Origin: a phage
Sequence record: OZ346189.1
Reading direction: 5' to 3' (one strand)
Length of the DNA: 64,000 nucleotides
Positions 3,309-64,000 of the stretch are shown piece after piece (the first letter of the stretch is position 1; every line of letters starts with the position of its first letter). The position numbers and the translations under genes are program-made. The notes beneath the pieces were generated by a model, which saw only the letters and a program-made list of their open reading frames with translations, was not told the origin of the DNA and ran no database searches.

Positions 3309-4531
3309 GCGTTATTCAACAATTCGCTAACCCGATGAATCCGCGTGAAACTGTTTTACTGGCTCACGGCATGATTAAACGCGTCAGCATCAAGCCTATC
3401 AAAGGTGCTGATCCTACAACAGGTATTAAAACCACTGTGTGGCAAGGTAAGAAAATTGAATCCAGCCACACCATCTCTTTACTGATTTCTGAACTGGATT
3501 CCTCTGATAACCTACTTCAAGGTGGTGAAGAAGTTTGGATCAGTATGGGCGATAAGCTGCTTAAACCGGGTCATCAAGACTCTGTCTCTGTTAAAATTGA
3601 TGACAAGTGGGAAACCGTAACGCCAGGATGGATCGTAAATATCCCTTTGAAGGCAAACGAGCATAACGGTAAGACCTACTACAAAGGCTCACTGGCTAAG
3701 ATGGTTAAGCTGGGTGCAGGAGAGGCTCCAGCAGCGACTCAGCAGCAAAAACAGCAACAAGGTGCACAATCACAAGGCCAGAAGCAGAAACCTCAGCAGA
3801 ATGCCAATCAGGACGTTTTACGCATCTATGGTGATGTGACTCAGATTGTTGGCAACGTGGTTACTGTAAATGACCACAAGATTGGCGAAGGTGCTATGGT
3901 TGTAACTGATGAGCAGCTTAAAGACCTGGTGGTAGGTGGTCGTGTTGCAGCCATTGTTGACAAAGACACTGGAAACATTATCAGTGGTTTCAAGGCCTAT
4001 CCTCCTAAGGCAGAGAACGGCACTCAAGGCTCCGGTGGCAAGCGTAAATCCTCTTACGACCCTATCGGTGTGGAAACGGGGCATAGCATCAATGCGTTGC
4101 AGATCATCCTGGATCGCGGGTTTAAGGTAGACGACCCACTGGGCGTGGCTAAAACACTGCACGTAGTCACCATTGAGCTTAAGAAAGAGTATGCTCAAGC
4201 CACCAACCGAACTGAAGATGAAGTAGGTGCCAGTGTCGGTAATGCGGTGTTGAACGCTTGTCGCCGTATTGACAAGAAAACGAAAGTTGATGATTTTGCA
4301 GCGGCAATTACTGCAGAAGCAAAAGATGTCTTGACTAATCTGGCTGAGCCGTTGTACGATTGGATCAAGAACGGTGCTGGGTCAACTGACCATCAAGAAC
4401 CTCAGGCTGCCAAACAGGAAGCAGCTCCACAGCAAAACACTGTAGACGCTCCTCCTGTAAATGATGGGGAAGATGACCCGATGGATCAGAATCCAGCACA
4501 GTACGCCTTTGATGATGACATCCCTTTTTAA
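3305..4531 (+). CDS. ssb: single-stranded DNA-binding protein with acidic C-terminal tail
   Basis: 408 aa; C-terminus ends DDDIPF (the E. coli SSB protein-interaction tail); Q/G-rich linker; RBS GGAGACAAAGA. Confidence 0.65.
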   Translation: MSVIQQFANPMNPRETVLLAHGMIKRVSIKPIKGADPTTGIKTTVWQGKKIESSHTISLLISELDSSDNLLQGGEEVWISMGDKLLKPGHQDSVSVKIDDKWETVTPGWIVNIPLKANEHNGKTYYKGSLAKMVKLGAGEAPAATQQQKQQQGAQSQGQKQKPQQNANQDVLRIYGDVTQIVGNVVTVNDHKIGEGAMVVTDEQLKDLVVGGRVAAIVDKDTGNIISGFKAYPPKAENGTQGSGGKRKSSYDPIGVETGHSINALQIILDRGFKVDDPLGVAKTLHVVTIELKKEYAQATNRTEDEVGASVGNAVLNACRRIDKKTKVDDFAAAITAEAKDVLTNLAEPLYDWIKNGAGSTDHQEPQAAKQEAAPQQNTVDAPPVNDGEDDPMDQNPAQYAFDDDIPF

Positions 4532-4545
4532 CAATTAGTTAACAT

Positions 4546-4575
4546 AGCCCTGCCCGAAAGGGTGGGGCATTTTTG
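4546..4575 (+). terminator. rho-independent terminator
   Basis: GC-rich hairpin (agccctgccc-gaaa-gggtggggc) followed by a T run. Confidence 0.6.
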
Positions 4576-4593
4576 TATAAGGAGATCTGAAAA

Positions 4594-5010
4594 ATGACAT
4601 TAGAAGATATCATTGTTAAACCTGAGAACTATGACCAATACAACCTGTCAACTCAATCTGTAGACCTTGGATGCGCCACAGTTAGTGCGTGGCTGGTTAA
4701 TGGAAAAGAGCTGGACAAGTGCTTAGAAGCTCACATGTCTGTTAACAAGTTTCTGGATGAAAATACTCACTGGCTTGAGGGTGCTGGAGTATATGCTTCA
4801 TGGTTGGAGAGCATGGGCTTTGACTATCAATCTGATGAAGGGTGGTGGAGCTATCTGGCTATCTGTCCAGAAACACTGCAATGCTTCATGAAATACTCTG
4901 AAGATCTTGAGTACCGAGCGGTGGTTGATAGTGCTATTGCCCGTTATAGCCGTAAACCTTTTTCCCATGACATTAAAACTGTGGAAGAATTTGTTGAAGT
5001 TTTCTGTTGA
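4594..5010 (+). CDS. hypothetical protein
   Basis: ORF with TAAGGAGA RBS. Confidence 0.5.
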   Translation: MTLEDIIVKPENYDQYNLSTQSVDLGCATVSAWLVNGKELDKCLEAHMSVNKFLDENTHWLEGAGVYASWLESMGFDYQSDEGWWSYLAICPETLQCFMKYSEDLEYRAVVDSAIARYSRKPFSHDIKTVEEFVEVFC

Positions 5011-36143: not shown

Positions 36144-37007
36144 TTAACCGTTGACAGAAGTTAACGTATTGATTTGATAGAGCAAAGTCTGCATGCTGTC
36201 AAATACGTCTTTATCTGTCATTTGCATTGCAACAGTCTCAGCATCTGGCAACCAATGTTCCTGGCAAAATTTAAGGTTCTTCTCATAAGTCGCCTCAGCA
36301 TACTGTGCCAAATAATGGTCAATATGGCTCATAGTCTGACCCCCATATTGAGCACTAGCTACTGCACTAGAGATTTGGCTAAGGATTGTTGTTGCAACCC
36401 CTATTGACTTCGGCTTACTGACATGGGCGTTACCAATGTTGAATCCGTTTTCCAACATATCTGGATAATTTACCAAACAACAGTTTGTTAACGGACTGAT
36501 CAAGTAGTCAAGATCATGCACATGGATGAAGCCTTTATTGTGCTCTTCTGAGACACGGTCTGGCAGGATCTGTGTTGATGCAAGGTGTTTGCTAAGGATG
36601 CCTGCAAGCAGGTCACGATGAGTGTGTACATGATTGGTAGGCTTATTTGCGTTTTCTTTTGTAAATTCATCACAAGTTCGATCCAAGAAGCCACTAATAT
36701 CTGCAAGCAGTTTTCCACCTGCCTCTCTGTTATTATCTCTTGTCTGTCTATACTGGATGTATTCTCTGGCTGCACATTTTAAACCCATATCCATAAGAGC
36801 ATCTTCAACAAGGATATGGATATTTTTTACAGAGATCGTGCACTGGTCGGTTGGTAGATTGTTAGCAACAACTTCATTAACCGCACAAGCGATCCGGTAA
36901 GCTTCTTCTTCAGTATGTCCAGACTCAAGTAAGGCGGACTCTGCCGCCTTGATCACCTTAATTCCGTTATAGACCTCTTCTCTACCGTCCCGTTTTACAA
37001 CTTTCAC
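36144..37007 (-). CDS. nrdD: anaerobic ribonucleoside-triphosphate reductase, exon 1 (ATP cone and N-terminal catalytic part)
   Basis: FIHVHDLDYLISPLTNCCLVNYPDMLENGF is the NrdD signature; ORF ends in a stop at the 5' splice site. Confidence 0.75.
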   Translation of the reverse strand: MKVVKRDGREEVYNGIKVIKAAESALLESGHTEEEAYRIACAVNEVVANNLPTDQCTISVKNIHILVEDALMDMGLKCAAREYIQYRQTRDNNREAGGKLLADISGFLDRTCDEFTKENANKPTNHVHTHRDLLAGILSKHLASTQILPDRVSEEHNKGFIHVHDLDYLISPLTNCCLVNYPDMLENGFNIGNAHVSKPKSIGVATTILSQISSAVASAQYGGQTMSHIDHYLAQYAEATYEKNLKFCQEHWLPDAETVAMQMTDKDVFDSMQTLLYQINTLTSVNG

Positions 37008-61210: not shown

Positions 61211-61308
61211 AGCTAGGTAAGCCCTTTGGCAAGGGCGAGGATTTTTAATCCTGAAAATAGACGAGGTAGTCGTTGAATACATAGGTGGTTCGATTCCATC
61301 ACCTAGCA
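61211..61308 (+). tRNA. atypical tRNA-like sequence (anticodon loop reads TTTTTAA, possibly Lys-TTT) with an approximately 30-nt insertion in the variable region
   Basis: acceptor GCTAGGT/ACCTAGC, D-arm GCCC/GGGC and T-arm GGTGG-TTCGATT-CCATC are recognisable; anticodon stem has only 4 bp; no encoded CCA. Confidence 0.3.
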
Positions 61309-62375: not shown

Positions 62376-62659
62376 GAGTTGCTACACTGTTTATTGTGTG
62401 CTTGTTATTATGTGGGTGTGCAACCAGCGTTGAGAGAGAATACAAGATTGACCCTCCTGATGTAGGAAGGTTGATTGTTAAACCCCCGGAAGGTGCCATG
62501 AAACCACCTGCTAAAGCTATGCCTTTGAAGAAAGGTGCGCCAGATGCAGTGAATTCTGGCATTATGAGGGATAATAATCTGTCTTGTAGCAATGATAGAG
62601 CTAAATTGATCATTTTGCAAGACTATATTAGAACACTTTTTCCAAAGGAGAGAGGTTAA
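62372..62659 (+). CDS. o-spanin (Rz1-like outer-membrane lipoprotein)
   Basis: signal peptide with lipobox-like LLCGC; proline-rich mature region. Confidence 0.55.
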   Translation: MRVATLFIVCLLLCGCATSVEREYKIDPPDVGRLIVKPPEGAMKPPAKAMPLKKGAPDAVNSGIMRDNNLSCSNDRAKLIILQDYIRTLFPKERG

Positions 62660-63087
62660 TGTCTAAGATTTACGGACCGTGTTCTGAAAAGCAGAAGATG
62701 ATCCTAGAAAACGATGCAGATATTTTGGTAATCGGCGGTGCCGCAGGGTCTGGCAAGTCGTTCCTCTTGCAATTGATGCCACTTAAAATTATTGATGACC
62801 CCCACAGCTCTGTGGTTATGTTCCGAAGAACAACCCCACAGTTGGAAGGTGAGGGTGGATTATGGCCTAAAGCAGTAGCTATTTATAGTGATCTGCCTGA
62901 AAACATTAAGCCAAAGTTTAGAGAGAAGGATCATAAGTTCATTTTTCCACGGTTTGATCCGAACACTGGCAAGTGGGATAGAAGCAAAAAGGGAGCTGTT
63001 GTAAAATACTGCCACATGGAGTATGTACAAGATAAGCTTAACCATCAGGGGCTTGAGTACACCATGGTTTGCTTCGATGAGGGTTAA
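62659..63087 (+). CDS. terminase large subunit, exon 1 (ATPase N-terminus)
   Basis: Walker A GGAAGSGKS preceded by Q..L..DADILVIGG; RRTTPQL; Walker B MVCFDE; ORF ends with a stop directly after the exon-final GGT. Confidence 0.6.
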   Translation: MSKIYGPCSEKQKMILENDADILVIGGAAGSGKSFLLQLMPLKIIDDPHSSVVMFRRTTPQLEGEGGLWPKAVAIYSDLPENIKPKFREKDHKFIFPRFDPNTGKWDRSKKGAVVKYCHMEYVQDKLNHQGLEYTMVCFDEG

Positions 63088-64000
63088 TTTGTAGCTCTCG
63101 TAAAACCTCCCTAATTGCGGGGAAATCTTTATTATTGACACCACCAACCTGTCATGGTAACATGACAGAGGCTTCGAAGAGAGATCGAAGGTATGGTAAC
63201 AGTGTGTTAATTTAGATAATCCGCAGCGAAGCATCCGAGAGGATGAACGTTCAACGACTAGTCGAAAGACGTAGAATCAAGCGATTCGAAACGGGAGGGT
63301 GAATGTGTAATACTAAGAAATGTATGGATTGCCAAAGAGTTCTACCTATTGATGATTTCTTTTTATCATCTAAGAGCAAGGATGGATACTCAGGTACATG
63401 CAAGGAATGCTATATGTACTACAGGAAGGGTGGATCTCGTAAAAACAAAAATATGGTTAAGAGAGATGATGCAGCATTGTTTATTCAAGACTTGCTGAAG
63501 AAAGGTGAACTTTTTGAATGCAAATCTTGTCATGAAAGTATGCTCGCTGATAGTTTTTACACAAAACGTGACTATGGTAAAGTATATCTGGTTACGAACA
63601 GGTGTAAGATGTGTGAAAAGTTTTATCAGATTGAGAAGAAATTTAACATAACAAAAGATGAATACTATCGTCTACTCTCAGATCAAGATCATAAGTGTGC
63701 CATTTGTAGAATATCCCTTGATGAGTATAGGACGCAAGGGTATAGAGATTTCTTTTGTGTTGATCATGACCATAAAACTGGTGCTGTAAGAGGGTTGCTT
63801 TGTGATAAATGCAACAGAGCTTTAGGTTTCTTCCAAGAGGATGAGGAAACTATTCTTAGAGCGGCAGAGTATTTACACATTCATAAGATATAGTCTGGTC
63901 TGCATGGAGACATGCAGCTGCCTGAAAATGGCGGGGCAAGACTAGCGACCTTGCCCGAACATAAACGACACAATTCGAATGGGAGCAGATAGACTACCTG
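63088..64000 (+). other. group I intron in the terminase large subunit gene (partial; continues beyond the window)
   Basis: begins after an exon-final U; contains P element AATTGCGGGGAAA (63113..63125) and R-like GTTCAACGACTAG (63248..63260); UAGUCUGG follows the HEG stop. Confidence 0.55.
63303..63893 (+). mobile_element. Endonuclease VII-type (HNH-like) homing endonuclease within the terminase intron
   Basis: CAICRISL...FCVDHDHKTGAVRGLLCDKCN, the T4 Endo VII family motif; GGGAGGG RBS. Confidence 0.7.

Follow-up and report, generated by a model that had tools for sequence, protein, structure and literature searches.

Introns in the gene for the large subunit of the phage terminase (TerL) have been described in phage rV5, for which Kropinski et al. 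(2013) give a section headed 'Introns in terminase' (PMC3606486) and whose RefSeq record joins TerL from three pieces, and in LL12, where a TerL intron is mentioned in the genome announcement (PMC6658697). For the BASEL phages, intron boundaries were annotated by Maffei et al. (2021; PMC8594841), and a TerL intron of the related Certrevirus CB7 was found by reverse transcription PCR (RT-PCR) to splice in vivo (PMC7344957). The group I intron in the large-terminase gene of Lactobacillus phage LL-H (Mikkonen & Alatossava 1995, as cited in PMC3606486) can be likened to these by description only, LL-H being unrelated to the rV5-like phages. On the protein side, Fang et al. (2018) described a family of homing endonucleases with an Endo VII motif (DHHRN) and listed the JES-2013 protein as intron-encoded (PMC6083498). 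Here we analyze the TerL gene in a stretch of 64,000 nucleotides (nt) from a phage (sequence record OZ346189.1; 'the window' hereafter means this whole stretch). One codon past the catalytic glutamate that follows its Walker B motif, this gene is interrupted by what is very probably a mobile group I intron of subgroup IA, resembling the T4 td intron and without P2, that carries a homing endonuclease gene (HEG) with an Endo VII motif. An earlier note, made by reading the letters alone, had proposed a group I intron with an Endo VII-type HEG directly after Walker B, and in this it was correct. The TerL intron and its HEG are already known, being annotated in GenBank and in the literature.

The window is the genome of a Vequintavirus (rV5-like) phage of Escherichia coli. 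Over positions 62600-64000 it is 99.9% identical to Escherichia phage MaxBurger (MZ501093; difference ~0.1%) and 98-99.8% identical to ~30 other Vequintavirus records, and the tRNA (transfer RNA) cluster and spanin genes 5′ of TerL are arranged as in rV5. MaxBurger, DrSchubert, WalterGehring, nomo, navn, JES2013 (NC_022323) and ~25 further Vequintavirus records carry the same element at the same site, with 98-99.9% identity over exon 1, intron and HEG (98.6% between JES2013 and the window), and the HEG is annotated in them as 'putative homing endonuclease' or 'endonuclease VII'. The TerL of MaxBurger is annotated as a two-piece join with an internal 'putative homing endonuclease', and between the window and the MaxBurger-type records there is no difference of substance. 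The first TerL intron of rV5 (NC_011041) shares the insertion site and the ribozyme, with a few substitutions that include one compensatory pair; it differs in being 319 nt long, in having no open reading frame (ORF) and in having as its P8 a short unrelated hairpin, UAAGCGA/UCGCUUA. Further afield, the td and nrdB introns of T4 (subgroup IA, with I-TevI and I-TevIII, respectively) and the intron beside PHIKZ072 in phiKZ have the same core with P7.1/P7.2 and an in-frame stop at the start of the intron. They differ from the TerL intron in their host genes, endonuclease families (GIY-YIG, HNH) and ORF positions, and the TerL copy lacks P2 and has a three-helix extension of P5.

Boundaries of the TerL intron

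The exons, their motifs and the intron lie at the 3′ end of the window:

62659-63084, plus strand: TerL exon 1, 142 codons, the last being GGT (Gly142) (ORF list; Pfam Terminase_6N)
62734-62760, plus strand: Walker A motif GGAAGSGKS, amino acids (aa) 26-34 (motif positions)
63064-63081, plus strand: Walker B motif and catalytic Glu, MVCFDE, aa 136-141 (motif positions)
63085-63967, plus strand: group I intron, 883 nt, with an in-frame UAA (63085-63087) as its first bases and a terminal G (63967) as its last
63968-64000, plus strand: start of TerL exon 2, ACA CAA TTC GAA TGG GAG CAG ATA GAC TAC CTG, encoding TQFEWEQIDYL and cut by the end of the window

The 142-aa ORF at 62659-63087 with terminase Walker motifs, reported in the earlier note to end in MVCFDEG before a TAA, is present as described. 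Its protein is 100% identical to residues 1-142 of the TerL of MaxTheCat, an intron-less phage with an uninterrupted TerL of 515 aa, and it ends 3 nt (one codon, the G of MVCFDEG) past the Walker B motif and catalytic Glu. Intron boundaries were set by alignment with the intron-less allele. The presence of the intron stands, and its start, which had been put at 63088, moves to 63085, the TAA being the first three bases of the intron; likewise, exon 2 does not lie beyond the window, as had been supposed, since it begins at 63968 and its first 33 nt fall inside. Joining 63084 to 63968 yields ...MVCFDEG followed by TQFEWEQIDYL, identical to MaxTheCat TerL across the part within the window; the predicted junction in the spliced complementary DNA reads ...GAUGAGGGU / ACACAAUUC..., and the intron-less site in MaxTheCat reads ...TTCGATGAGGGCACGCAGTTCGAA... 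The continuation of the terminase that the earlier note had advised looking for downstream was found, the full-length MaxBurger splice product agreeing with MaxTheCat at 515 of the 516 positions aligned, counting the stop. The intron is placed at 63085-63967 because the comparison with MaxTheCat and the splice of MaxBurger both give a collinear TerL. As is characteristic of group I introns, it ends in a guanosine and its excision restores the frame exactly, giving a protein collinear with the intron-less TerL.

The spliced protein also reads as a complete T4-type large terminase, with an N-terminal ATPase holding Walker A and Walker B and a C-terminal RNase H-like nuclease. Pfam Terminase_6N matches it across the junction with 72.2 bits (aa 25-294), compared to 25.6 bits for exon 1 alone, and Terminase_6C matches with 27 bits. 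A sequence search of the PDB with the spliced TerL returned no match, so that Walker B is not tied to a solved terminase by sequence.

An exon that ends at a stop codon could also be the first half of a split gene, namely a decayed, non-splicing insertion on either side of which TerL is made as two separate polypeptides that assemble. Such genes exist, the NrdA of Aeromonas phage Aeh1 being split by mobE into separate polypeptides (as cited in PMC7344957), and the splicing of the TerL intron is a prediction. Against a split TerL, exon 2 begins without a start codon or ribosome-binding site, its ACA CAA TTC abutting the last intron base; the break would sit inside the ATPase fold, between Walker B and the remainder of Terminase_6N; the exon sequence of P1, GAG GGU, is strictly kept in intron-bearing alleles; and all core helices of the ribozyme are intact and supported by comparison. 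We therefore consider two assembling polypeptides highly improbable. The same evidence led us to reject a free-standing endonuclease gene splitting TerL, and an intein was ruled out by the stop codon at the junction together with the ribozyme core.

JEP1 and several other GenBank records give TerL as two 'terminase large subunit' coding sequences or as hypothetical proteins, not as a joined coding sequence, the intron having been overlooked in automatic annotation.

Fold of the ribozyme

A search with the group I covariance model, as the earlier note had proposed, gave an RF00028 match at 63075-63917 with 47.5 bits (E = 9.6e-11 in a 1.1-kb search and 5.6e-9 over the whole window), far beyond chance. 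The natural ORF-less allele of the same intron in rV5 scored 84.9 bits. Three sequence elements had been singled out from the letters: the P element AATTGCGGGGAAA (63113-63125) and the R-like element GTTCAACGACTAG (63249-63261) each occur once in the window, and TAGTCTGG is present downstream of the endonuclease ORF at 63891-63898. The last has 4 matches against 1.6 expected, short motifs of this kind not being individually significant. The helices are as follows:

63079-63099, plus strand: P1, 8 base pairs (bp), exon GAGGGU and intron UA (63079-63086) with the internal guide UAGCUCUC (63092-63099)
63106-63111, plus strand: P3 5′ strand CCUCCC, pairing with 63293-63298 (minimum free energy (MFE) fold of rV5; comparison)
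63116-63225, plus strand: P4, UGCGGG (63116-63121) with UCCGCA (63220-63225), enclosing P5
63126-63128 with 63214-63216, plus strand: P5, with an extension of ~85 nt in three helices, one of them CUGUCAUG-GUAA-CAUGACAG
63226-63250, plus strand: P6 (GC/GU) and the P6a hairpin AUCC-GAGA-GGAU, of which 4/4 P6a pairs covary across 8 introns
63256-63260, plus strand: P7 5′ strand GACUA, within the R-like element; partner UAGUC at 63891-63895, in a pseudoknot with P3 (Rfam model)
63261-63270, plus strand: P7.1, GUC-GAAA-GAC, double-sided changes at 2/3 positions
63274-63287, plus strand: P7.2, GAAUC-AAGC-GAUUC, double-sided changes at 4/5 positions
63293-63298, plus strand: P3 3′ strand GGGAGG, doubling as the Shine-Dalgarno sequence of the endonuclease
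63300-63883, plus strand: P8, an 11-bp stem of UGAAUGUGUAA (63300-63310) with UUACACAUUCA (63873-63883) (Rfam alignment)
63884-63898, plus strand: J8/7 and P7 3′ strand, UAAGAUA-UAGUC-UGG, the classical 'S' element, given as UAGUCUGG in the earlier note and conserved in all related introns
63900-63917, plus strand: P9, CUGCAUG-GAGA-CAUGCAG (MFE fold; comparison)
63919-63933, plus strand: P9.1 (MFE fold; comparison)
63935-63955, plus strand: P9.2, GGCAAG...CUUGCC (MFE fold; comparison)

Every core helix is intact, and the group I catalytic core P3-P9 is present with its P, Q, R and S elements. In the rV5 allele, which has no ORF, the MFE fold recovers P1, P3, P4, the P5 extension, P6a, P7.1, P7.2, P8, P9, P9.1 and P9.2 (z = -5.8); P7 is pseudoknotted and is hence not expected in an MFE fold.

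In P1, exon GAGGGU pairs with GCUCUC (63094-63099) and the 5′ splice site falls at the wobble pair U63084-G63094 in both the Rfam alignment and the rV5 MFE fold, as is usual in group I introns. The alleles differ at this very base: intron-containing alleles read GAG GGT (5/5) and intron-less ones GA(G/A) GGC (5/5), with which the U-G pair of P1 is impossible. This split is the pattern expected if the intron requires the U and pairing with the guide. A candidate P10 of 3 bp may form between UGU (63090-63092) and the ACA of exon 2 (63968-63970).

Relatives of the intron were found by distant blastn with the rV5 copy. They lie beside the RNA polymerase gene in phiKZ and FBPa36, between fragments of the ribonucleotide reductase gene in phiNIT1, in the tape-measure gene of nepoznato, in the major capsid protein region of Vibrio phage 1.232.O and in td and nrdB of T4-like phages. 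Eight related introns, from five phage groups, have a common ordered layout, and in an alignment of 12 helices across them, hand-built to fit the proposed structure, the proposed pairs are standard in 429 of 433 cells and change on both sides at 32 of 55 positions. Compensatory changes in P3 are seen in nepoznato (CUUUGU/GCAAAG) and the Vibrio phage (CUAGGU/GCCUAG); one position of P4 goes from G-C to U-A in 5 relatives, and the P5 hairpin has a C-G to U-A change in rV5, within Vequintavirus. As an observation apart, the introns of the unrelated phages nepoznato, Vibrio phage 1.232.O and phiKZ have the same P7.2 AAGC loop and a P9.2 looped by UAGCGA, and some of these introns lie in stretches without an annotated feature.

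Subgroup IA, reportedly as defined by Michel and Westhof in 1990, is marked by extra P7.1/P7.2 helices between P7 and P3′. Both helices are present in the TerL intron, which is similar to the td introns of T4-like phages and to T4 nrdB. Its 3′ domain is ~83% identical to the 3′ end of the td intron in T4-like phages, and it shares 73% identity over 190 nt with the phiKZ intron.

The endonuclease encoded in P8

63303-63893, plus strand: HEG, 196 aa; its stop UAG (63891-63893) forms the first 3 nt of the P7 3′ strand

The ORF at 63303-63893 is, as had been claimed, of the Endo VII family and has a strong ribosome-binding site. It matches Pfam Endonuclease_7 (PF02945) at 1e-21, with 77.1 bits against a cut-off of 23.6, and GGGAGG lies 4 nt 5′ of its ATG; PHROG endonuclease VII families were matched as well. 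The N-terminal part holds two zinc-ribbon-like CxxC...CxxC repeats (aa 7-36 and 73-104), and the C-terminal motif is complete (C132AIC, D154HDH157, R163, C167DKCN171) relative to the DHHRN definition CX2-4C ... D-H-D-H ... R ... CX2C-N (PMC6083498). The nearest solved structures in a PDB sequence search were the restriction enzyme Hpy99I (6e-6, aa 57-192) and T4 Endo VII (5e-4). With the F-CphI/DHHRN family (PMC6083498) the protein shares the C-terminal CxxC...DHDH...R...CxxCN, a His-Me finger related to those of T4 Endo VII and Hpy99I; it differs from F-CphI, which is free-standing beside an intron, in being intron-encoded and extended at the N-terminus by the two CxxC...CxxC repeats. Among 30 Vequintavirus records the protein keeps an identity of at least 95%, and its identity to all other phage sequences is below 60% (tblastn, phage collection).

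P8 encloses nearly the entire ORF, the AUG lies within the 5′ strand of P8, and the last six codons span the P8 3′ strand and J8/7. When folded, P3 would be predicted to occlude the ribosome-binding site of the endonuclease.

The protein might instead serve the phage, as a packaging accessory nuclease or as its Holliday-junction resolvase. HNH proteins adjoin HK97-type terminases, the gene at hand lies within a terminase gene, and the name of its Pfam family is 'recombination endonuclease VII'. HNH proteins are, furthermore, able to stimulate terminase (Kala et al. 2014, as cited in PMC7344957). Yet the gene is missing in about three quarters of near-identical, viable phages, rV5 having the intron without the HEG and MaxTheCat having no intron, and the protein has its catalytic motif at the C-terminus, like the endonuclease clade of Fang et al., whereas resolvases have theirs at the N-terminus. 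Since MaxBurger encodes a separate 'EndoVII packaging and recombination endonuclease' (record positions 121777-122382), the intron protein is not the phage resolvase. A role of this kind is thus scarcely credible, and we retain the reading of the protein as a selfish homing enzyme.

Proposed mechanism and its standing

The transcript would fold into a ribozyme of P1-P9, in which an external guanosine is predicted to attack 3′ of U63084, held in the U-G wobble of P1. The freed exon 1 would then attack 3′ of G63967, joining GGU to ACA and giving an uninterrupted TerL of 515 aa. On unspliced RNA, the in-frame UAA at the first codon of the intron would halt ribosomes, and the P8 loop would supply the 196-aa His-Me-finger endonuclease of the DHHRN family. 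In a mixed infection the endonuclease would be expected to cleave intron-less TerL near ...GAG GGC / ACG CAG..., and repair from an intron-containing genome would copy the intron into the cut allele (homing). Because the ribosome-binding site is in P3′, the AUG in P8 and the stop in P7, a single RNA would be expected either to be translated into the endonuclease or to fold into the ribozyme, but not both at once.

Directly established are the boundaries, the fold, the protein family and the presence/absence polymorphism. Several points weigh against this overall account. Splicing, cleavage, homing and the interplay of translation with splicing in the TerL intron are what we infer from sequence, and the RT-PCR of CB7 concerns a different intron, with an HNH endonuclease. 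The window copy scores 2.5 bits under the Rfam gathering score (47.5 vs 50), owing to the ~570 nt of ORF in the P8 loop, and a scan of the whole window at the gathering threshold returned tRNAs only, the intron being recovered only with an E-value threshold. The comparative alignment, fitted by hand, leans towards the proposed structure; P7, P6 and most of P4 are invariant in it, so that covariation is silent on them and, across the 8 introns, it is the Rfam model that speaks for P7 and P6. Finally, P10 has 3 bp at best.

Distribution among Vequintaviruses

In a survey of ~119 Vequintavirus records with the TerL region (>91% identity), ~30 had the intron with the HEG, ~23 had the ORF-less intron and ~65 had no intron at the site. 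Such polymorphism between near-identical genomes is an indirect signature of mobility. HEG-containing and ORF-less introns are near-identical outside P8, and their P8 stems are unrelated in sequence. P8 is a helix in both forms, albeit of different sequence, being in rV5 and JEP1 a short unrelated hairpin (rV5 UAAGCGA...UCGCUUA; JEP1 with one wobble pair). We regard it as possible, if somewhat doubtful, that the HEG entered a resident ORF-less intron as a cassette bringing its own P8 stem, that the resulting layout acts as a switch making endonuclease translation and TerL splicing mutually exclusive, and that a separate endonuclease transcript starts from 63135-63163.

At those positions, on the plus strand and inside the P5 extension, a sigma70-like promoter match (TTGACA-17-TAACAT, 10/12, with TG) lies ~140 nt 5′ of the endonuclease ATG; it is also found in the ORF-less rV5 allele, and it may act as a promoter within the intron or be there by chance.

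rV5 (NC_011041) carries a further TerL intron at 3623-4601, which encodes an HNH endonuclease and lies 318 nt 3′ of the first. MaxBurger is without it; therefore, the intron content of TerL varies combinatorially among these phages.

Eighteen records (MG0656xx) named 'Campylobacter phage' (host C. jejuni) match the rV5-like TerL region, those listed being 97-99% identical, which points to wrongly assigned hosts, or to contamination of that data set by coliphages.

Comparison with the nrdD intron

A second intron in the window, which the earlier note had also seen, does exist. It interrupts nrdD on the minus strand, exon 1 ending in GGT followed by TAA, and TAGTCTGG lies 3′ of its HEG (35384-35377):

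36146-35350, minus strand: group I intron in nrdD (class III ribonucleotide reductase), 797 nt, boundaries from intron-less alleles
36147 and 35349, minus strand: nrdD exon ends, exon 1 with GGT at 36147 and exon 2 with CAG ACT CCA from 35349 (QTPFITL...)
35922-35389, minus strand: endonuclease ORF of the nrdD intron, HNH_3/I-HmuI-like

The Rfam placement of this intron (23.3 bits) was discarded, as it was misplaced inside the ORF, and the boundaries were redefined from the intron-less alleles. The nrdD intron is itself polymorphic in Vequintaviruses, occurring with the HEG, in a shorter form, or not at all.

The two introns had been proposed to be copies of one lineage that spread to two genes. 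They do share a UAA after an exon-final GGU, GUAAAA-P3-UAA, ACGACUA and AGAUAGUCUGG, and in both the endonuclease ORF follows a P3 3′ strand that doubles as ribosome-binding site and ends beside J8/7. Beyond these motifs the likeness fades: the TerL and nrdD cores align with a Smith-Waterman z of 1.5, compared to 28.7 for the TerL core with phiKZ, 19.6 with T4 nrdB, 16.6 with T4 td and 9.8 with the second TerL intron of rV5, and blastn of the TerL intron halves within the window left the nrdD intron unmatched. With the TerL core, 779 records from many phage groups are retrieved, including phiKZ, T4 td and T4 nrdB; the nrdD core retrieves 43, all of them Vequintavirus nrdD loci bar one short Bacillus phage match, and never TerL. 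Both the P9.1/P9.2 tail and the P7.2 with its AAGC loop are missing from the nrdD intron, which contains additional hairpins between P3 and P4 and encodes an endonuclease of another family (HNH_3/I-HmuI-like, not Endonuclease_7). GGU followed by UAA, the R-like element and UAGUCUGG are also found in the introns of phiKZ, phiNIT1, nepoznato, ELT4 and the Vibrio phage; the shared motifs are generic elements of phage group I introns, and the single-lineage claim is therefore unsupported. We consider a common recent origin very unlikely and treat the TerL intron as a td-like intron distinct from that of nrdD. A search of the window for a sister intron by tblastn and blastn, with the endonuclease and the TerL intron halves as queries, had one notable hit. 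This was weak, resembled Endo VII and lay at 46994-46920, as would fit the Endo VII gene of the phage itself.

A tRNA gene upstream of TerL

61212-61308, plus strand: tRNA, 97 nt, anticodon UUU (Lys), part of the tRNA cluster, with a variable arm of unusual length that contains a hairpin

It is normally Leu, Ser and Tyr tRNAs that have long variable arms. This gene scores 35.5 bits with the Rfam tRNA model and is miscalled by ARAGORN with a 4-base anticodon; it is annotated as tRNA-Lys in MaxBurger and is unannotated in rV5.

Implications

Beyond correct annotation, the element is of small importance. Where a pipeline overlooks the intron, a truncated 'terminase' of 142 aa and a second fragment are called, as has happened in several GenBank records. 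The endonuclease, so far uncharacterized, belongs to the Endo VII-motif homing family, which was defined recently. In otherwise near-identical phages the locus occurs in three states (without intron, with the ORF-less intron, and with intron and endonuclease); this clean natural series could serve for the study of intron homing or as a recombination marker in rV5-like therapeutic phages. If the HEG did enter a resident ORF-less intron as a cassette, these phages would provide a natural snapshot of group I introns becoming mobile.

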